The translations under genes were made by a program, and so were the position numbers. A DNA stretch of 64,000 nt from Vermamoeba vermiformis (Eukaryota): contig JBEWZL010000179.1 in the NCBI GenBank assembly GCA_045837725.1, positions 372,001 to 436,000 of the forward strand, in the 5' to 3' direction. The notes under the pieces were generated by a model, which saw only the letters and a program-made list of their open reading frames with translations, had not been told where the DNA came from and searched no databases. Position 1 is the first letter of the stretch, and each line of letters begins with the position of its first letter. Below are positions 8,623-43,600 of the stretch, piece after piece.

Positions 8623-8706
8623 TGTTCACGTGCTTTTTCAAACTCCCTTTCGAACATTTGTTATTTTTGAACTTTAACCGCACAGCAAGTCCACAGGAGG
8701 ATTACG

Positions 8707-11700
8707 ATGTACAAAAGTATCGTCCTTGGGCTTTGCCTCATCGTTGCGCTTGTCTATGCGCACGAGGGCAAAAGTCACCACTGCATTCACGATGAGCTCG
8801 AAGTGAATGAAGGACGCAGCGCTATGGAATTTGAATTTATGAAGAATCCTAGCTCAAAAGATCAACGTGCTATTCAGCAAACTAACGCACCACCTCATGA
8901 TTACATGCGAACGAAGCTTGAGCCGGTGTTAGATGCTGATCCCAACACCTGTTACAGAGCGGGAGACGTTGTTCAAACTAGAAGTGGCCAGTCATATACA
9001 TGCACGCAGAGTGATATTATGTCGACCAATAAGCGCCAATACGTTATTGATATCGCCAACGAAGCACTTGCAATTCTATCTGAAACTTTGAAGGTAGTTC
9101 GATTGGCTTCATTAACTATTCCAACCACAACATGTGGATCAGCACCAGGTAATTTTTGCGTATTATTACAGCTATAATATCAAAAATAAGTGGATTAAAT
9201 AATGTCAGTTGTGAAAATCCGTTTCAAAAATCGGTGGAGATATAATTTACAGAAATCGAAATAATTTAGTTCATGCTTTAAATATGACTTATAATTTACT
9301 ATTTATTACGAGCCACTCATAATTTTTCATTAGTTAAGGCCATTACTATTAGCTTGTATTTTTCAATGCAGTTTTAATCTTTAATCACTCAATAATATAA
9401 TACTACGTATAAATAATAATATGCACACTATAATTGTGCATAAAAATGGTTATTACGTTATGCTAGCGTGTACCGCCAAGCTAACGGAGCGGATTCCTTC
9501 TGTAGAATGTACTAATCCTTATTATAATATAGGTGTTACCGTGCCTGATGCATACAAGAACGGAGGTGTTACTGGAATTGATTTCGTTCTCTTCTTGACA
9601 GCACGCCCGATCCCATCAACCAGCTCGACCTCGCAAGTTCTGGCTTATGCTTCCTCTTGCTGGGCTACGCTGTAAGACTTCGAAATTAGTATATGTATGC
9701 ATTATACTAAACATTGCTGGTGACAGGTACGGCCGCTCTATTGCTGGTCACGCCAACTTCAATCCATCTGCGCTCGATCTCGATCCAGCTTCTCGCAGAC
9801 GCCAAGTGGCTGTAGCGTTACACGAAATTACTCACGCACTTGGTTTCAGCTCAGGAAAGTTCGGAGACTTCATTCGTTGGGTCAATGCCACTGCTTATCA
9901 GAGCATCGACATTTCGGAGGTTTATCTGCAGACTACTTTGCCTGGCTGGAAGAGCGCCTCGTTCATCAAGTCACCTAATGTAGTGGCATTCGTACAAAAG
10001 CACTTTGGTTGCGATACTCTGCCTGGTGTAAGTAGTTCAGCGATTTTTTTGCGGATTTGCGAATTGAAAATTTTTCCTCGTGTTACAAAGATCGTCTTGA
10101 TGCTACACTATATTATTATCAATATTATGAACCTTCTTCTCTCGATTGCTAATGTTATCACCCCAGGCTGAAATCGAGGACGGTGGTGGCGGAGGTACCG
10201 CTGGATCTCACTGGGAAAAGCGTACATTCAACAACGAGTACATGACTGGCAGTGAAGTCGAGTGGTCTGTATTTAGTCCACTTACCCTCGCTTATTTTGC
10301 GGACTCTGGTTGGTATCAGATTGACGACACGAAAGCGCAGGCTTTGGTCTGGGGTATAAACCAGGTACGCGGAAAATTTTACAAATTTAAGAAATCATAC
10401 TCCGGTGGTATATAAATTAAGCCCATAGTATGACTCGGGAGTTAAGAAATTGAGTAACGGTCAGAAAATTATTGCGTTGTGGATCAAGTATTAAAACCCT
10501 TACAAATTGTTTAACTTCTATTAATTTTATCGATTTTGCTCGTGGATTATACGAAACTAATATTAGTACTGACTGCTTAATGCTCCCAAAATTTATTTCT
10601 GCTTCTTATTACGCGGATCATTTCACTCGATCGCGAACCAAACAGTCAACTAATAATCGCTAAATAGGGCTGTAATTTTGCGATGAAGCAGTGCTTAACA
10701 GGCAACTGGCCAACAGGCGGCGGATACCTCTGTCAAAAGAGTACGACAGGTGCATCCGATCCCACCTTTGACCGCGTTGGTTACGGCATTTGCAACTACG
10801 TTACATATTCATCGCCATTGCCCGCTCAGTTCCAGTAAGTATCTAGGACTGGTTGTGAGTTTGAGGAGTGATTAGTGGTTTAATGATGTTAATTCCTATG
10901 CTATACATCGAACACTCGAGTCGCGACACTTGGGTGTTGTGATAAAAATGTACCAAACTGAAATATAACCACTAATTCATTCTTCAAATTATTTTTTAGC
11001 TTTTAGCACAAAGCAAAAGCCCTAGAAATTTTTCTTTTGTATCATGGATCGTGATCTAATTATTGTCCGTAGGAACATTCCTGGCCAGCCTTCAGACGGA
11101 GGTGCGAGTCAATTGGCCGATTATTGCACGTACATTCAATACAACACACTGTGCACCAGTCAGCCCAGCGACTCCAGCGTGTTAAACACCGCTGAACAGT
11201 ACTGCGACACGTGTCGTGTGTTCCAAGCCAACTTGGGTTCAGTCGTCAACAAGAACTCGTGCTACAACATCACTTGTGCTGCGGACGATGATTTGCGCGT
11301 GCAAGTCGAGAGTATTTGGTACAAGTGCCCCATTGACGGTGGTTCAGTTCAGCCGTACAACTTTGAAGGCTCTATTGATTGCGAACCAGTACGTGTCGTG
11401 CTCATACAAATTTATTACTGTTTATTGATCCTCATATTTTTGCCACAGAAAGCAGCTGCTATTCTCTGTCCTCAAGTCGCGTTGCAACCCGCTGATTTGT
11501 GGCCTGTCTACGACAGTATTGACCCGACGAGCGGTGGTCCTGGCATCAACGTCACTATTAAGGGTATGAGTATATTGACATAGCCTTATTATTTATTTGA
11601 GTACTAATACGCGAAAATCAGGCAGCAACTTGAGCAAGGTCACGGCTATCAAGATCGGTCCTGGCATTTCAACCAGCGTGACAGTCGTTTCTGACACTGA

Positions 11701-25973: not shown

Positions 25974-28900
25974 TTAGAGAAGTTTCTTAATTTCTCCGAT
26001 ATGGTTCTTACGAGTTGATATATCTTTTCTCTTGCCGCACAGCAGATCCGTTCGGTACTTGTTCTTCATTTCGTAAAAGATCTTTGTGGTCAGATCCGTC
26101 ATTTTTTCTTTACGGCCCTTAGTAGTGAACTTGGAGAGCTCTGAATCCAAATCAGCCGATCGTTGCAAGAAGATATCATATTCCTCCTGTTGCTCATCAT
26201 TCTGGGCAGCTCTGTCAAGCAGATCTTGCGTGGCAAAAATGACTCGTCGAGCAGTCATAAAGTTATCTTCAGATTCAAGGCACATTTTGCCGCATTGTTG
26301 CAGACAGTTCAAAGCGACAGCAGCGACATCAATGTGCTTCTCAGCCTTCTTTCGTGAGGTCGTAACAGGAACTCTTTGTGTGATGACACGTTGACATTTC
26401 ATGCCGTTCATGCGCGTGTATTCAATCTGAACTTGTACGGGCAAGCTTTCAAACGGCAACTTCGCCTTCTTTTCTTGCTTGGCCTCGATGCTCTCGACAA
26501 GTTCTTTGCCCTTAGCCGACAAAGTGAACTCAAAGGTGAGATCAGACAACTGGTTGACGTTGCCAATATCGACCTTGAGCACGTTAGTCTCGGCACCTGC
26601 CTTCTTGTCCGATTTGGAACTCTTCGACTTCTTCTTGTTAGTGTTGTTCTCAGCGCCCTCAACGCGAACATCAACGGAGCCTTGACGGAAGGCAAGTTGC
26701 TCGGGCAGACGGAACTCCAACTTGACATCAGTGGCCAAGGTAGGGTTGTCAATGATGGCACGCATTTTGCGTTGGAGCTCGAGAGGCTTGACGATAGTGA
26801 CGTCACCACCAGTAATTTGAGCACATTTGCCCAAGATACCAAGACCGCAATCTTCGCCTTCGAGACCGATCACAGACACCGGAGTGTGGTGTTGAAGTGC
26901 TGTTTGGGCCAATCTGTCGTAGAACTTTTGCACTTGAGTCTTCGAGTCGGGCTTGTCCATGGCACCGAGACCAACGTTGCTAAGACCGTCAGTGCACAGA
27001 ATGACTGAGCCTTGAGGAGACTTCGAGGCCATAGCAATAGCGACGGTCAGTGCAGGGCCAAGCGCAGTAGCACCTCCTTCTTCGAGCGCCAAGATCTTGT
27101 CCGTGAGAGTCTTTTGACTTTCTTTGACCGGTTGAAGCTTGTCAATGGCCACGGTTTGACCGAGCTCCATGAGAGCCTCAAAGTTGTTCAACTTGTCACC
27201 AGCAATGACAGCTTGATTGCTAATCTGAGAACTGCCGTCACCGATCAATTGAACTTCGTTGTTGAACGTGATCAAGCAGACGCGTCTGTTGGGATGAGCT
27301 TTCTTCAACTCTTCGATTTGAATTTGAACTGCAGCTAACACGCACTCCATGCGAGAGATATATTGAATGTTGTGGCTCTGACGGGGCATGTACTGACTTG
27401 AGCCCTCCGCCCATTGATTGAACAACTCTTCGTCCTTCTTTTTCTTCTCGCCTTGCAATTGGAACAATCCAAAGCCCTTTGGGATCTCAGATGTCACGCA
27501 CATAGAACCGCTGATGTCGACGCAGAAGATGACGAGGCCTTGGTCTTCGTTCTTATCGACAGGTGCGGGTGCCTTCATGAAGTCAATCGCTTGATCATTG
27601 ATCGTGGCGTACTCTTCGACCTCTTCTTTGTCAACTTCGGTCTGGTTATTGCAAAACTCGCAAGTCCATTTGCCGTTCTTAATTTCCGAGAGCGGTGAGA
27701 ATATAGCATTGCACTGGGAGCATGAGATGGCATCACCAGTCATCATGTGGGCCTCACGGCCGAGCGTGCCAAAGCCAAGTGAGACGACGTTAGTGTCAGC
27801 CATTCGAATAGGCTCACCCTTCTTCTTCTTGTCGCCCTTCTTGCTCTTGCTGCCATCAAACTTGTCGCGGATTTCGAGGATCTTCATGCGGTCCTTGGCC
27901 ACGCTGAAACCCATGCTCTTCAAGAGGTCGTGATCGAGCTTGGCGAGGTCATCTTCAGTCAACTCGTTCTCTTCAAATTGTTTGACGTATTCGGCTGCCT
28001 TCTCGGCGCTAAGATCGCTCGAGCCAAAAAACTCTTTCCAGCTAAAGTCTTCGGATTTCTCTTTCTTCTCGTCCTTTTCTGCGGCCTTTTTCTTCTCCTT
28101 CTCTTCGTCTTTCTTTTTCTTCTTGTCGTCGCTGCTGTTTTCACGAGTGAACATTTTGCCGATCTTAGAAAAGAATCCAGAGCCAGGTGCTGATTTCTTG
28201 CGCTCAACACGTTGCTCATCGGGCTTGCGCAATCCAGCAATTGTCACTTGTTTTCGGTAACTACAAACAATTAGTATCGGTCTGCTTGCATTTATTAGAA
28301 TCTACTTACGAGTCTTCAATCGTAGGATCATACTCTTGGATGAAATCTGCCAATGGGTGGGTTAGATTATGAAGAGAAGAATGACGTTGACTTACGATTT
28401 TGAATAAATTGAACAGTAATGGCAGATTTGCCGACACCTCCAGAACCAACAATAACGAGCTTGTATTCAACTGATATACGAGGAATCATGCGAACAAGCT
28501 CGAAGATCGACTCTTCAATGTTGACTCGCGTTTTGGCTGAGGTTTCCATAAATGGAATTCCCCATTCTCGAGCCAGAAGAGCACCTTCATTCGTTGAGAC
28601 CTCTCGCTCATCAACCAAGTCAACTTTGTTGCCGACTAAAATACAGAAAGGGTGATCTGTGTCCTTGACGCGCTGAACTTGCTCGTAAATGCTTTTGGCC
28701 TCCTCAAAAGAGGATCTGCTCGTGATCGAATAAACCAAAATAAATCTGATTCTAAAGTTAGCCCCTGATCTTGACAAAAGACGAGGATAGTAATTACCCT
28801 TGGCCAGCACGGTAGTACTGATCGCGCATTGCGCTGTAAATTTCAAAGTTAATTTTTCTACGATGCCAATTCGTATGAACGTCACTAGTTACCTGTACTC

Positions 28901-37144: not shown

Positions 37145-37861
37145 TTAATAGCGATTCGTGCCTAAGAGTAGCTGAATAGCACCAACCATTGACAGAATGA
37201 ACGAATGAGTGAGCACTGTGCAACCGCTAGTTCTAGGAGTGTTAGAGATTGGACTTCTTTGAGGTGAAGAGGGACTATTTTGAACACTAGGACTGCCCAC
37301 TTGTACTGTCGGTGCCCCAGGGACTATCTTGTCTGGGGCGTTGCAGAAGTAAGTGTCGCAACAGAGCACATTCTGATAAGTGCTCTTAAATCCCTCACAG
37401 TTGGTGGCAGTATCAATCGCGTACATCTCTTGCTTGGTGCCTAGACCATCAGTCGTGCTGTAGTACACGCACACGAAGGCTCCTTTTTGAAGCGGCTTGC
37501 TAACTGGCAGCACCATTCCTATATTCGTGATGCTCGTCACGTAGCAGGAGCGATATTCCAAGGTATCTGGTGGTGCCATACAGAAGTCACTAGAGCAGTA
37601 TTGGAAATTCGAAAATTCGGAGTTGGATTCGAAGTCGGCTATTTGATTGTTTGTGGCATAAGAAAAAGCAGTTTGAATGCTTTCATTGGGGCCGACATAG
37701 CACGGTGTTTTGCACACATAATCGTAGCGCACGCATACATCCGCAGCCAATAAAAGGTTAGAAACCAGGCCATCATTTAAGTTGCCGACCAGGCAATTGA
37801 GAGCTGCAGCAGATGAAACCGCCAAAGCGAAAATAACTATAATTATCTTGTTGTTGTTCAT
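37145..37861 (-). CDS. Intronless secreted, probably GPI-anchored Cys-rich protein with two Ly6/three-finger-like repeats
   Basis: Signal peptide, then LNCLVG...CVRY...YCSSDFCM and RSCYVT...CVYY...CCDTYFCN, an S/P-rich stalk and a hydrophobic tail. Confidence 0.65.
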   Translation of the reverse strand: MNNNKIIIVIFALAVSSAAALNCLVGNLNDGLVSNLLLAADVCVRYDYVCKTPCYVGPNESIQTAFSYATNNQIADFESNSEFSNFQYCSSDFCMAPPDTLEYRSCYVTSITNIGMVLPVSKPLQKGAFVCVYYSTTDGLGTKQEMYAIDTATNCEGFKSTYQNVLCCDTYFCNAPDKIVPGAPTVQVGSPSVQNSPSSPQRSPISNTPRTSGCTVLTHSFILSMVGAIQLLLGTNRY

Positions 37862-38067
37862 TGTAGTATGCGCTGAAAAGCGAAAAAAAAATCTTTCGGC
37901 CCGTTGTACCAAAGTCAACGTTGGTCAACCTTTAAGAAATAGATCAGATCAAGGAATAAAGCAAGACGAACGGTTGTGTCCCGACATCCCAAATTCTCAT
38001 TAGTCTAAAATGCCGTCAATTCAATGTTTGTTTATTTGATGTAATTTTAAATCATCTCGCGAGCACC

Positions 38068-40422
38068 ATGGAAGAGATTAAACGAGAAGATAACGGAGAC
38101 GATTTTAAGAAGCTATCTGAGCTTGGCCTTGAGTTCCCTAAACTCGACGCTCGAGGGGCAGATCTGATCATCACCTTCGACCAAGACGATTCAGCTTCTG
38201 AAATATTAGAAGTCGATGAAGATGAAATTGGAAAAATCCAAATTAAGCTGAGTAGTGATAAGACAATGCACTCAATGGTCTTTCCGGATGCCTCAAAGAG
38301 ATTCAAGTTTGAAAGGTATCTTATCGTGCAAGAAATTTTTTAATCATAAGAATATCTATATAATTACAAAATACAATAGGAAAATCACTAAATAATGCTT
38401 GTGATATTTTTCAATCGATTTTTTTAAATGACAATCTTTTATATTTAACAGCGCCAGTCTACGCTACAATCAAGACCGAAATATGTTCTATATTAGATTT
38501 AGACGATTTTTAATACAAGAATTTTCGCTCGAAGTTGATGCTATGGACGAGGAAGTAATGGTAGATGTAAGGATCTAAATAACCAATTTTATCGCCTTGG
38601 TTAATCGGCAATATAACTAATTCTCATACATCATAGTTTGATAGTAAAAATAGAATTATTGGATTTGCAGTTTTGAATTCTGCACGCTGGTTGAAGAAAG
38701 AAGTCTTCGCGCAGCTGCCTGATAACGAGGTAATCTTCGTAGATCCGTTTAAACGAACTTAGAAGTACCAGTATTAATATAATATGTTATTAGTGGATTA
38801 AAGTGCCCGTTGAAGGTGTCCAAGAGAGTAACGGACCTGAGGATTATCTCGAGCGTAAAGCGAAAAAGGTTAGAAAAGCACAACAACCAGCTCCTGAGCC
38901 TAAAAATAAGCCCAAAAAGCGCGTATTTATCAACTTAGTTCCTAATCCTATTCCTGGACTTGAAGGTACAAACAAGCCAATCGTTACACAGTCTTGCTCA
39001 TTTCTTTTTAGACGCACCTAAAAACTCGTTCTTCCGTCAAAAAATCGTCAGAGACTTGGCCTGGGTGATGAATAGTCCCTTTATATTACGAAACATTCCT
39101 CAATTGCCTGATTTCGTCGTTAATTCAACCGAAGAAAAGAAGCCCGATTATTTTACCGATTTGCCGCTAGTACCTGAAGAGTGGAATGCAGTTATTAACG
39201 ATCCAAAGTTTTTACAAGAATTAGACGATAATCCGCAAGAGTTTTATGACTGGTACGCACAACTGACGTTAAAATTCTTCGTGGAGATTGACCGCTTTGT
39301 TACAGGATCAAAACGAAGGTCGTTCAAAGCAACAATTTGGGCGGTTACTTTTCAATGTTGATTCAATGGTGGTTGTTGAAGTGTCCTAACACTGACAAGG
39401 TACGTGACAATCATACTGTCACTACAAACATATTTCTAATACTCGAATAGTTACGCGTCAAATTCCAACTGTACAAAGACAAGAAGACTATTGGTGATTT
39501 GGATTTCTTATTCCACGATACAGAGACAGACGGTAGGAGTAATATATTCGTTATAGAATGGAGTACTGAGCGTTGGTATTGTTCAGAGTGGATCCACTGG
39601 GAAGTTGGAATCAAGTTTTATTTATTGCCGTTTGAGAATAAGCCGACTGAAGGCTGTCAAGTATTTAACGGCCCTCATTGCACGGGAGACTCGTTGTCAA
39701 AGTTCATTCGAAAGACGTGCAAACAGCTTCAGATCCGCGATGACGAGACAGCACGTGAGAAGCTGGTAGAAGAAGGAGTGTTGCCGTCACGTTGTTATTT
39801 CTTTTTGAAGGGATATTTGTTCTATCCTCTCACGGACCACTACTACGAACAAAGCAACTATGCTAAAGCACCACAAGAGTTCATGAACGAATACGTGGCC
39901 AAGCACTACAGCATCGAGAACACTAATTTGCATCCTAATCACTGCAAGGGCTGGTGGAACCAATTCAAATACTTGTCAACCGAGGGTGACGAGCGGATAG
40001 GTAATACATATAACCTTTATTATCCTCCTTAATCCTAATGCTAAAATTTTATTTGGAATGTAGCTAATGACGTGCTTTTGTTGGAAACGAATGTCAACGA
40101 AGTGAAAAAGACGAAGCTTGCAACTTCACGCTGGGTTATCTTGACGAAGGCAGACTTTATGACGGAGATTTATATCACCCCTGATAGGGTCGCTGATTAT
40201 GATTTATTGGACTACCCGCAGCTGAAGCAAAAATTGACCGAAAGTTTCCAAAGAAATTACAGAGGCGTGTTCTTGAGCGAATTGATTCCGTGGGACCAGT
40301 CAAGATTCAAGAACGAGCCAAATCCCGCTCAAATCACGTGGGTCGAGGCTAGTAGAGGAATTATTGTTAGCGACAAGTGGCCTGATCCGATCTACGCCAA
40401 CAAACGGTATTTCAACTACTAG
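38068..40422 (+). CDS. DUF2283-like domain(s) fused to a DUF1853-family putative PD-(D/E)XK nuclease
   Basis: One spliced frame: RYNQDRNMFYIRF...EEVMVDFDSKNRIIGFAVLNSA, then VRDLAW, LGGYF, TIGDLDFL, HWEVGIKFYL, GP...DSL, KGYLFYP, GWW and SRGIIV. Confidence 0.75.
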
Positions 40423-40616: not shown

Positions 40617-43600
40617 ATGCAACGAGTAAAGACAAGTGTGATTGGATGGGTGGAGCGCCGAATAGACGCGGGCATCACATCCGCTGGAGAATCTGCAAAA
40701 ACATTTTTCGTCGAAGGTATGTAACATTTCATTAAAATAAATAAACGTAATATGCCACTAGAACTTTTTCAAAATTAAATAATTTCTAATTTTTTTTTCT
40801 CGTTTATTCTTGTTTCTAAAAGATTGTACTTATTAATAATATTAATACGTAGCATGGAGAATTGTTTCTAGAATATTTATTGCTTGGATCACTGTCTTGC
40901 TTGGATTTCTCAATAAAAGAGCCTTCGAAGGCTGGTTCACAGCTGAAAGAGGACGAATTCAACAAAGACCAGTGCCTCCCTCTCCTAACAGCGATTCATT
41001 TGAAGAGTAAGTGAATCTTGTCATGTCACATTTAATTGGTCTGAAACTCATTCAATTGAATAGGCATACAATGACTCGGTTTGCGTCGCTGTTGGACGAA
41101 TCAGACGAGCAGTACGTGATACAATTATATGCACATATTGATTAAAATATGAGCTAACTTTAAACAGTAATTTAACGGCGCTGAAGTCGTCGACCCCAGA
41201 TCTGACAGTCAGTTCAGGTTCGCTGACAAGCAGCAACAATAACAACAATAATACAACTTCAACGAATAAACCTCGTAGACCAAGTAGGGCTTCTTTAAGA
41301 CGTAAGTAATAATGCATTTTCAGTGCGAATGTCAGTTATTAACAACTTCTTGCCAGCGAAGAAAGTAGTGATGCCGAAGATTAAATATGACAAAGTTGAT
41401 GTGAATAAGGATCGCATATTTTCATATGAGAAGGTCATGACAGGTTTCTTCGAGGACTTAAAGATGAACACGATCTTGGCAATCGATAAAATCATGAATG
41501 CGCTCAGACGATGGTCGAAGGACTTTTTTACGTACTTGAAGAACTTGACATTGACAACGATATTGTTGGCGTTATTGGACCCACGACGCTATTGGCAGCG
41601 AGCAGTATGGGCCTATTCCATTGTCGTGGCAGCGAGCAAACGCGTCATAAACTTCCTCCGTCCGAGCACTTGGAAAGCAGTGCCGCACAAGATCGTCGCT
41701 AAAGATCGACTTGACAAGCGACGCATGCAAGAGATCGTGCAGAGCCATGGATATCCCTATGAGCAGTACACTGTCACTACTGAAGACGGTTATATTTTGA
41801 CACTCGAAAGATTGCCCAATCGCAAGAGCGCAAAAGTGTACGTCATTACATACAGGTCTATCGCGCGCTAATATTAATGGATATTTATGTTAGTTTGTAT
41901 TTGCAACACGGTGTTATTGACAACAGTTACACGTGGTTCGCACATATTCAAGGACAAGGTGCCCTGGCATTCACTGCATTTGATTCGGGCTATGACGTGT
42001 TTGTCGGAACATTAAGGTCGTAGTACGTCTGGCAACGGCTTTTTTTGCTAATAATTTAAACTGTAGAGGGTGTCAAGGCAGTATGAAGCACGTCAATCCT
42101 AATATCAAGGCCAAAGAGTACTGGAACTTTACAGTGAACGAGCACGGGTTTTACGACTTCCCCGCGTTCATGAGTAAGATTAACGAGCTCAAGAACCAAG
42201 AACTTGATGTACTTTCACAGCCTATTGTCATCGACGCTGAGACTGGTCAAGTTCATGCATCAAACACGAACAATAATAACAACAACAGTAATTTGAATGT
42301 GCCAAGTTTGTCACCTCGACGAGGATCGTTTAGACGAAGCAAATCTTTCCCGAGCAACATCTTGCAATCGATTGCCAATGGCGAGAAAGTCGTCGAGTTG
42401 AACGATATTCAAGACGAAACTGAAAAGAAAGAATCCACGGCTGCACAAATGTCAAGTGCCGAGTACCGTGCAAAGAGCAAAGAGGCACTGTTAGGCAAGA
42501 AATTTGAAATCACTGTCATTTCTCACAGTGTAAGTCCTCTCTTTTTTTCGACACGTGCATTTCTGACTACGATTTGTAGATGGGAGCAATGGCCACCTTG
42601 ATGTACCTGATCAAGTCTCGCTTGGATAAGAAGCCTCACTACGTATCACGTGCTATTTTATTGTCGCCTGCAGGAGTTCATAAGACTGTAAGTTACGAAA
42701 TACCTTCGAAAGCCGGATCTAACTTCGAGGCAATTTTAGGCACCAAAAATTGTTCCTATTGTCGGCCCTATTCTAACAGTATTATTGTGGATACTTCCGA
42801 TCTATTCGTTTAGATTCCCTTCAGGTCTCATTTTTGGATTATTACTCATGGATGCTGTTTTTACTGACATTTCTTTTCAGAATACGTTCGTGTTTTGTTT
42901 GCTAAGGTGATGGAAGATGTAAATAGAAGCTACTCGATGAGAAATTTAATTTCTTATTTGTTGTCGAAAGTTGTTGGTGGTGACTCAATCGTAAGTCTGG
43001 TGCATCTAGATCGGAGCAACCCAGATCTAATTGTCTTTCGATTTAGGAGCACACGTTTGTTAATGTACATAATATCACGTATAACATCTTCAGCGGCACT
43101 TCGGCAGGTGTTTTCAGACATTTCTATCAGATCTACCGAAAAGGCAAATTCATGGTAAGCACGTGACTATTGCATATTAATTCTACCTTGTGCGCTGTCG
43201 AAATGTATTGGCATATGGTGTTGTCAATATACCATGAGGGCACATAGATTATCCTATCTATCTATAGCGTACTAATATCTACTAAAGGCATACGACTTCG
43301 GCAAAGATCGTAATATGCGCGAGTACGGTCAGAGAGAACCGATCGACTTTTTGGCTAATTATGACAAGTAAGAAAAATATCAATATTGACCTCTATAGTA
43401 TTTTTGTTAATATTTTGTTCTTAGGATCGATATCCCGATCTATTTCGTGATGGGTTTGAAGGACACGCTGATCGAGCCAGTCAGTATTATAACGCACTTC
43501 TCAACGCTTGAAGATCATCACCCTAATCTAGGTACGTATTACACTTATAATAGAAAAGTAAAATAATACGATCTAATTATTGTGCAGCGTTCTTAAAAGC

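Follow-up and report, generated by a model that had tools for sequence, protein, structure and literature searches.

The gene described here lies on the plus strand at positions 38068-40422 of a 64,000-nucleotide (nt) stretch of Vermamoeba vermiformis DNA (contig JBEWZL010000179.1), the whole of which is called the window. The evidence supports a single gene joining a DUF2283-type module to a DUF1853 domain of the PD-(D/E)XK-like type. It comprises nine exons, from an ATG at 38068 to a TAG ending at 40422, and the joined coding sequence of 1818 nt is open throughout and specifies 605 amino acids (aa). The gene is real, spliced, expressed and conserved. The best explanation, held to be moderately probable, is that of a three-part eukaryotic gene where a bacterial DUF1853 was fused once to the DUF2283 module, followed by intron gain and purifying selection, and where the protein would work by a nuclease mechanism. 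No description of a fusion of DUF2283 and DUF1853 was found in the literature searched, and the architecture is visible in the precomputed Pfam annotation of at least one public sequence. Both are widespread families with no assigned function, and their conserved fusion in eukaryotes is a clue of the Rosetta-stone type: it suggests a joint action of the DUF2283 fold and a nuclease-like enzyme and offers a single protein in which both can be assayed.

Structure and expression of the gene

The eight introns measure 46-136 nt, every one is of the GT..AG type, and the GT..AG borders are kept at all eight boundaries in a relative present in the metagenome contig L111. RNA joints were seen for five of the eight, namely introns 1, 2, 4, 5 and 8. 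In contigs of run X1, which are 95-100% alike, introns 1, 4, 5 and 8 are spliced out at exactly the predicted borders, the joint of intron 1 (38315>38452) being present in one such contig. The joint of intron 2 was identified in raw RNA-seq reads of X15, X16 and X17 (1, 1 and 3 reads) and that of intron 5 in X1, X15 and X17; intron 8 is also skipped in X15-X17, with the same acceptor and 23 letters of a diverged exon-8 end at the joint. The X15-X17 reads are mostly 90-95% alike (95-99% in 19 of 119) and therefore come from a relative. N-terminal and C-terminal exons are both covered by reads, at similar low depth.

The L111 contig holds an orthologue with nine exons of identical length. The exons of both genes share 74-85% DNA identity with 0 gap columns, as in exon 1 (75%, with 62 of 82 aa identical), exon 2 (85%) and exon 9 (81%). 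The introns share 39-63% with gaps: intron 1 shows 54%, intron 7 shows 48% with 17 gap columns, and the counterpart of intron 6, at 63%, contains in-frame stops. The ratio of nonsynonymous to synonymous substitution rates (dN/dS, Nei-Gojobori) against L111 is 0.047 for the whole gene; by part it amounts to 0.047 (exon 1), 0.040 (exons 2-3), 0.082 (linker) and 0.040 (DUF1853), all of them rough values since dS is close to saturation. Gap-free exons and low dN/dS indicate that every part, exon 1 and the linker included, is constrained coding sequence. An earlier reading of the letters alone (the sequence-only reading) had placed an intron-containing gene at 38068-40422, and this is borne out by the nine-exon open reading frame (ORF), the five RNA joints and the exon conservation in L111. 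The gene has no distinctive composition, its region having 38.8-39.7% guanine plus cytosine (GC) and the window 40.8%, and no second copy was found within the 64-kilobase window.

The joining of both parts in one protein is seen in several relatives. P0017 is a 'complete ORF' of 547 aa, a Trinity transcript in EukProt, and carries both Pfam domains; P0008 and P0045 have both parts within one ORF. A single ORF of 564 codons in L112 (52% GC) runs from the second half of unit 2, the DUF2283 domain of the module, through the linker to the end of DUF1853, the counterpart of intron 3 lying inside uninterrupted reading frame. The module, or its conserved tail (…D-x-x-W-I…), is present in all seven eukaryote-type relatives where the N-terminal region is at least partly visible: P0017, P0008, P0045, P0004, P0003, L111 and L112. 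P0002, P0005, P0001, P0006 and P0007 are fragments without this region. Over their best aligned stretches the eukaryote-type relatives are 26-53% identical.

Two genes or a mis-joined model, with a small DUF2283 protein from exons 1-3 ending at a stop in intron 3 and a separate DUF1853 protein, would agree with the lack of an RNA joint and of read depth at intron 3 (38730-38793) and with the stop at 38760-38762, which is reached when this intron is read through. The arrangement is nevertheless extremely unlikely: exon 4 has no start codon and the first later Met falls within the DUF1853 domain, L111 keeps the borders of intron 3 together with the lengths of exons 3 and 4, the junction lies within one ORF in L112, and P0017, P0008 and P0045 have both parts in one frame. 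Separate transcripts for the two halves, an outcome that the sequence-only reading had set against its own proposal, are not what the relatives show, the complete transcript P0017 and the single ORF of L112 joining both parts. Bacterial contamination or an assembly chimera in a eukaryotic scaffold has a practically negligible probability. The DUF2283 and DUF1853 Pfam families are mainly prokaryotic, as such an origin would require, but the gene has eight spliceosomal-type introns (five with RNA joints), eukaryotic genes on both sides, a GC content resembling the rest of the window and, on a metagenome contig of independent origin, an orthologue that shares its introns. Other long ORFs of the window match Sec23/24-type domains with SAM, Ras, the lipase N-terminal region, leishmanolysin and M28 peptidase, and from these eukaryotic-type neighbours the window is taken as eukaryotic DNA.

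The DUF1853 domain and the N-terminal module

The C-terminal 395 aa constitute a DUF1853, PD-(D/E)XK-like domain. The Pfam profile PF08907 matches the read-through of exons 7-8 (39451-40029) with E 1.6e-16 and 61.2 bits (cut-off 25), and exon 8 alone with E 1.7e-13 and 51.2 bits. Exon 5 gives a weak collinear piece at profile positions 1-47 (E 0.03) and exon 9 another at 210-285 (E 0.065), so that the pieces 1-47, 108-212 and 210-285 span the 285-position profile in order. Alignments of the spliced model extend over residues 187-594 with P0003 and 37-589 with P0017, itself a sequence that covers DUF1853 profile positions 1-284. NCBIfam gave no match for the five sequences searched, and a sequence search of the DUF1853 alignment against solved structures gave 0 matches.

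Exon 5 (39012-39252) begins the domain with the VRDLAWV helix and keeps the equivalents of L15 and W17; it is followed by intron 5 (39253-39305, 53 nt) and by exon 6 (39306-39399), which contains the LGGYF helix and the motif-I region, where the bacterial Glu is a Ser and a Gln stands four residues on. Intron 6 (39400-39450, 51 nt) ends in an in-frame TAG; its read-through in RNA may represent intron retention or an unprocessed transcript. Exon 7 (39451-39532) carries motif II, GDLDFL (residues 336-341), with D339 as the counterpart of the invariant bacterial Asp. Intron 7 (39533-39586, 54 nt) is in frame and stop-free, and the bacterial spacing of motifs II-III is restored once it is removed. 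Exon 8 (39587-40000) contains motif III, HWEVGIK (residues 352-358, with E354 and K358), the GPHCTGDSLSK helix with lysine K387, Q395, KGYLFYP and KGWW. Intron 8 (40001-40063, 63 nt) precedes exon 9 (40064-40422), formed by the C-terminal subdomain (SRGIIV..WPDP) and the stop codon.

Aligned with 32 bacterial DUF1853 proteins, the spliced model of the window keeps D339, H352, E354, K358, K387 and Q395. In P0009 numbering these columns are D112, H125, E127, K131, K157 and Q165, each present in 32 of the 32 bacterial rows. The window also retains KGYLFYP, H-x-x-GWW and the C-terminal W, and the set D, H, E, K, K, Q is shared with L111, L112, P0003, P0002 and P0004. As a separate observation, P0017 may be a pseudo-enzyme member of the family, having the full architecture and a complete ORF yet lacking four invariant residues.

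The part of PMC3045609 concerned with DUF1853 places it in the PD-(D/E)XK superfamily, describes an ExxxK variant with an extra helix Lys, gives motif I as E/Q and, as a 2010 paper, mentions few eukaryotic members, much longer than the bacterial ones, whose additional portion it does not describe. Its function is listed as unknown in a table row of PMC3424549, and no further paper bearing on it was found in the literature searched. By sequence, the DUF1853 core is predicted to adopt a divergent PD-(D/E)XK phosphodiesterase fold of the ExxxK variant. The likeness to the family (PF08907, COG3782) consists of a full-length collinear match where D, H-x-E, K, the helix Lys, Q, KGYLFYP and GWW are kept. 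The predicted core appears to resemble PD-(D/E)XK nucleases including UPF0102 (3fov), a match named in the same part of PMC3045609. The bacterial proteins are stand-alone and of ~300 aa, whereas the window protein, of 605 aa, also contains an N-terminal module, a basic linker and inserted loops, and its gene differs in the eight introns and the replaced motif-I Glu. Matches to modular nucleases of the FokI type and to toxin-immunity pairs (CdiA-CT/CdiI) did not rise above what a common fold or noise would give, and no membership is claimed.

The N-terminal module, of ~150 aa, is encoded by exons 1-3 and consists of two units of similar size. Exon 1 (38068-38315) specifies residues 1-82 and two bases of codon 83 and comprises an acidic N-terminus and unit 1; its peptide was confirmed as ...LDARGADLIITF...PDASKRF, unit 1 ending in PDASKRF. 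After intron 1 (38316-38451, 136 nt), exon 2 (38452-38566) contains the first half of unit 2, the DUF2283 domain (LRYNQDRNMFYIRF...EEVMVD), which is interrupted by intron 2 (38567-38636, 70 nt). Exon 3 (38637-38729) contains the second half (FDSKNRIIGFAVLNSARW) and the conserved ...LPDNE(W-I) tail, the peptide LRYNQDRNMFYIRF...FDSKNRIIGFAVLNSARW being confirmed in the spliced model. Intron 3, of 64 nt, separates the module from the linker.

The assignment of exons 2-3 to DUF2283 is strong as judged from sequence comparisons. None of the nine single exon pieces of the window gave a Pfam DUF2283 match, the domain being divided by intron 2. The first 160 aa of the spliced model, searched against 45 proteins, align to P0017 (E 1e-21, residues 37-155), P0045 (2e-19) and P0008 (1e-17), and Pfam identifies DUF2283 in P0017 with 30.5 bits (cut-off 23; residues 82-134, full profile) and in P0008 with 29.4 bits, above the same cut-off; P0045 reaches 17.5 bits, below it, and exon 3 of L111 gives a sub-threshold match at profile positions 34-48. 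The bacterial set used for comparison comprises 30 genes of a family present in 28 of 151 sampled genomes of one phylum. A hidden Markov model (HMM) built from these genes matches residues 86-135 of the window model weakly (8.9 bits). In hhalign a four-row eukaryotic unit-2 alignment, window row included, matches them with 96.4% probability and E 1.3e-9, making unit 2 a member of DUF2283 (PF10049) by profile comparison. The common pattern is Y/F-x..D-x-F/L-Y-I and D-F/Y-D..G-x-x-x-G-F/I-x-I/V-L..AS.

The module is likely composed of two DUF2283-like units, unit 1 probably being an old degenerate duplicate, a view that draws on a predicted structure. The AlphaFold model, made for the homologue P0017 (residues 1-167) and not for the window protein, has a predicted local distance difference test score (pLDDT) of 74 and a predicted template modelling score (pTM) of 0.69, with pLDDT 60-82 in unit 1 and 80-94 in unit 2. 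Five strands are predicted in equal order and spacing in both units, at 22-26, 29-33, 42-46, 54-60 and 63-70 in unit 1 and at 81-86, 91-96, 104-108, 115-119 and 125-131 in unit 2. By sequence, Pfam reports a single DUF2283 stretch in each of P0017 and P0008, and the bacterial HMM found a second domain in none of seven sequences. In hhalign, unit 1 matches bacterial DUF2283 with a probability of 5.8% (P 0.0065, collinear over 55 columns), and its match to unit 2 has P 0.11.

Some other candidates for the module were discarded. Matches of the DUF2283 module alignment to IsdH and teneurin in solved structures extended over 25-34 profile positions (best E 0.0018) and were set aside as chance, and nothing resembling the N-terminal module was found in the PDB. 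A cofilin-like exon 1, suggested by ESM Atlas clusters at 0.85 with low recognition, was also taken as chance; for the P0017 N-terminus the same resource gave bacterial DUF2283 clusters at 0.76-0.77, below counting level. DUF3854 on exon 1 (E 0.018 at 38068-38313 of the window and 0.016 at 375-620 of L111, ~15 bits against a cut-off of 23) was treated as noise; the sub-threshold match is reproducible in both orthologues and is probably noise in both. A complex prediction of the P0017 module with its own DUF1853 gave no answer (score 0.00, run without controls) and is no evidence either way.

The predicted two-unit model of P0017 matches four Pandoravirus proteins in BFVD (A0A2U7U7Y7, A0A2U7UBY2, A0A4D6EGY7 and A0A2U7UFV9) with E 8e-6 to 4e-5, template modelling (TM) scores of 0.48-0.67 and 138-182 columns; they have 137-181 aa and two of the four are named DUF2283 domain-containing. 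The likeness extends over the entire two-unit module, and single-domain phage DUF2283 proteins match only part of it. The viral proteins differ in being free-standing, without DUF1853, and the comparison is one between predicted models on both sides at 10-16% sequence identity. The viral family (quercus, neocaledonia, celtis, macleodensis, inopinatum) ranges from 115 to 300 aa, several members being named DUF2283, and also includes A0A4D6EJY2 and A0A0B5IWC4. Pandoraviruses infect amoebae, and the two-unit module may be common to amoebae and giant viruses; such structural likeness ties the gene to the biology of both. With two unit-2 peptide patterns, the sole conserved stretches drawn from the full-length alignment A4, the IMG/VR viral contigs gave 596 pattern matches and 0 confirmed relatives. 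A first metagenome scan with N-terminal patterns gave 592 and 0.

The linker is encoded by exon 4 (38794-38965), followed by intron 4 (38966-39011, 46 nt), and is basic and rich in K and P (RKAKKVRK ... KPKKR; WIKVP…RKAKKVRKAQQPAPEPKNKPKKRVF…), 9 of its 58 aa being K and another 9 P. Basic runs are present at the equivalent place in P0017, P0008, P0003, P0004 and P0045. The linker resembles classical basic nuclear import signals and may serve in nuclear import or in non-specific binding of nucleic acid. Organelle targeting was set aside, the N-terminus (MEEIKREDNGDD) being acidic and, as judged from the sequence, unlike a presequence.

With respect to the domains, the sequence-only reading had recognized DUF2283 in exons 2-3, a K/P-rich linker and a full DUF1853 with GDLDFL and HWEVGIK, and each of these agrees with the results: the Pfam matches in P0017 and P0008 and the hhalign comparison with 30 bacterial members, the composition of exon 4, and the 61.2-bit match with both motifs in place. 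For its proposal of a second DUF2283 copy in exon 1 the evidence is divided: the predicted strand order and the Pandoravirus match to the whole module agree with it, and the sequence tests fail or are weak.

Origin and distribution

An HMMER search with the exon 7-8 piece against 1.84 billion representatives gave 44 proteins at E <= 0.001, mostly of ~300 aa, the bacterial DUF1853 length, and a few longer or fragmentary ones of eukaryote type. A word-based protein search for longer relatives found none among 124 candidates, and a search with alignment A1 returned only P0017 itself and P0045, low-complexity words having crowded the candidates. In GTDB, 570 of 587 pattern matches encode relatives, mostly from Pseudomonadota and Planctomycetota. 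P0009 is identical to a gene of L001, a metagenome-assembled genome (MAG) of Chlamydiales.

Two trees were built. In the first (quick, 118 rows), 7 of 8 eukaryote-type rows form one clade, with a Shimodaira-Hasegawa-like approximate likelihood ratio (SH-aLRT) of 95, sister to L001/P0009 (99). In the second (careful, 73 rows), all nine eukaryote-type rows form one clade, with an ultrafast bootstrap (UFBoot) of 100 and SH-aLRT 96, sister to L001 (100/92), the bootstrap being not fully settled. The second tree omitted P0045, the fragments P0001, P0006 and P0007, 44 of 78 bacterial locus rows and six long or short representative rows (P0014, P0015, P0016, P0033, P0034 and P0041), and took in L111, L112 and two more copies from Chlamydiota. 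Lack of the motif-I Glu, unique to the eukaryotic clade and L001, is an independent character for their grouping. This sisterhood points to an old bacterial acquisition. DUF1853 was identified in only 3 of 201 sampled Chlamydiota genomes (L001 / G001, G267 and G327), all of them large (2.4-3.6 Mb). Given this rarity and the separate position of the other copies, the sisterhood does not fix the direction of transfer between the L001 lineage and the eukaryotes.

DUF2283 was identified in none of the five DUF1853-bearing bacterial genomes examined, and for this reason the fusion looks eukaryotic in the genomes sampled. Around 80 bacterial DUF1853 loci one cluster of neighbour ORFs recurs in 32 loci (39 ORFs, median 153 aa), all others being present in 11 loci or fewer; the recurrent cluster may represent antisense ORFs of GC-rich genomes, which is a guess. 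By sequence comparison, the distribution is read as one old transfer and one fusion, with descent within eukaryotes thereafter. The gene appears long domesticated, given its eight introns, window-like GC content and strong purifying selection, and would represent a clean, datable case of a bacterial, possibly chlamydial, gene turned into a normal intron-bearing eukaryotic gene. Horizontal acquisition and domestication had been suggested from the letters alone, and the position of DUF1853 within bacterial diversity, beside the Chlamydiales MAG, agrees with the former, the introns, GC content and selection with the latter. The same reading had counted a widespread, vertically inherited eukaryotic architecture against itself; the fusion does occur throughout a eukaryote-type clade and so is neither recent nor private to this amoeba, and the bacterial transfer is retained as one old event.

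Proposed function, alternatives and gene neighbourhood

The bacterial surroundings of DUF2283 give some indication on the role of the module. Among 30 bacterial DUF2283 loci, with 42 of 81 candidate neighbour ORFs scanned, 14 have a DUF4258 gene immediately upstream in the same orientation (12 of the 14 above cut-off); wherever coordinates were compared, this gene overlaps the start of the DUF2283 gene. The sequence-only reading had spoken of toxin-antitoxin-like pairs; the pairing itself is present and does not demonstrate a toxin-antitoxin function. Other neighbours at these loci (L082-L110) are HEPN, PIN, UPF0175, DUF433 and helix-turn-helix (HTH) genes, accessory surroundings rich in toxin-antitoxin genes. 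In the portion of PMC4755241 that treats it, the DUF2283 domain belongs to FseA, the transcription activator of an integrative element, and QseM is a weakly similar anti-activator; both point to DUF2283 as a small binding domain. FseA, in which DUF2283 is the Msi171 part, is made by frameshifting according to the same portion, and there is nothing of the kind in the window gene. The window copy further differs in being fused to an enzyme-like domain, with a second unit ahead and no DUF4258 partner involved. The cassette layout is absent from the locus, the upstream ORF being on the opposite strand and without a Pfam match (a window-wide DUF4258 scan was not made). This ORF, at 37145-37924 on the minus strand, has a hydrophobic, signal-peptide-like start, is Cys-rich and begins ~200 nt from the ATG at 38068, with which it may share a promoter region.

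In the best explanation, the DUF1853 part would derive from bacteria, its nearest sampled relative being that of the environmental Chlamydiales genome, and a single fusion to the DUF2283 module would have occurred in the ancestor of a group of microbial eukaryotes, with intron gain and purifying selection coming later. In the proposed mechanism, the linker would direct the protein into the nucleus or onto nucleic acid, and the DUF1853 core would cut a phosphodiester bond with metal ions through D339, E354 and K358 and K387 of the following helix. The DUF2283 module would be the partner-binding part, selecting the substrate or restraining the enzyme, a role suggested by the bacterial DUF4258 pairing and by that of FseA.

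Several results weigh against this explanation. RNA joints of introns 3, 6 and 7 were not found in the X1 and X15-X17 data, RNA depth is zero across 38719-38809, in the region of intron 3, and one X1 contig with intron 5 spliced out reads through intron 6 unspliced. Of the 32 bacterial rows, 31 have the motif-I Glu and the one exception, P0009 (Chlamydiales), has Ala; the window has Ser at this place followed by Gln at +4, and the eukaryotic clade as a whole has S, R, T or A, in most cases with Q or E at +4. The DUF1853 part of P0017, despite the complete ORF, has lost H (to A), E (to K), K157 (to S) and Q165 (to I), so that at least some family members may be non-enzymes. In the phylogeny, the partial row P0045 fell outside the eukaryotic clade of the first tree, L001 and some eukaryotic rows were flagged for odd composition, and the other two Chlamydiota copies do not group with L001, leaving a link made by a single MAG sequence. 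The shared architecture may also reflect transfers among eukaryotes as opposed to vertical descent. The functional steps, finally, are inferred for DUF1853 and for the fusion alike.

Two other functions were weighed and both are rather unlikely, to about the same degree. In one the protein is a self-restrained defence or suicide nuclease, its DUF2283 double unit forming a built-in antitoxin or immunity-like lid which releases DUF1853 on infection or uptake of foreign DNA; the toxin-antitoxin-like layout of the 14 bacterial loci, the free two-unit look-alikes in Pandoraviruses and the intact catalytic residues of the window would all fit. Against it, PADLOC-DB 2.0 matched none of six sequences (P0017, P0003, P0009, P0011, the L112 ORF and the window exon 7-8 piece), the bacterial DUF1853 loci have a single recurrent neighbour cluster, the fold matches are at noise level, and a single copy in the window with a dN/dS of 0.05 is unlike fast-evolving, expanding immune genes. 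The idea sharpens one of the sequence-only reading, which had proposed a regulatory pseudo-dimer in the N-terminal module and a defence against engulfed bacteria or giant viruses; no result obtained here supports either. A bolder form of this idea, a eukaryotic 'toxin with its own antitoxin', where a tandem DUF2283 lid silences a nuclear PD-(D/E)XK nuclease in cis until infection releases it and where the Pandoravirus two-unit proteins are captured lids that silence the host nuclease again in trans, is a long shot; if true, a part of a bacterial toxin-antitoxin system would have given rise to an arms race between host and virus. The other function is that of a non-catalytic scaffold, the DUF1853 fold of eukaryotes having turned into a pseudo-nuclease that serves for binding, and the protein acting as a chromatin or RNA adaptor. 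Absence of the motif-I Glu from the whole eukaryotic clade and its Chlamydiales sister is what such a change would leave, and P0017 is a complete, expressed ORF despite four more invariant residues lost. Against this role, the window, L111, L112, P0003, P0002 and P0004 keep all six residues, the lost Glu could be replaced in function by the Gln or Glu that follows one helical turn on, and the DUF1853 part of PMC3045609 admits either residue in motif I. The fused gene with a DUF1853 part of bacterial origin and a proposed nuclease mechanism is preferred.

Some further features of the window lie outside this gene. Its downstream neighbour, at 40617-41871 on the plus strand, begins with MQRVKTS… and continues into an Abhydro_lipase region, and leishmanolysin-like ORF pieces are found at 8671-10171 on the same strand. 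On the minus strand, positions 25974-28301 contain a single ORF of 775 aa with an unusual combination of SAM and Sec23/Sec24 zinc finger, trunk domain and VWA-like matches, located where the GC content of the window peaks (0.49 at 26001-28000).

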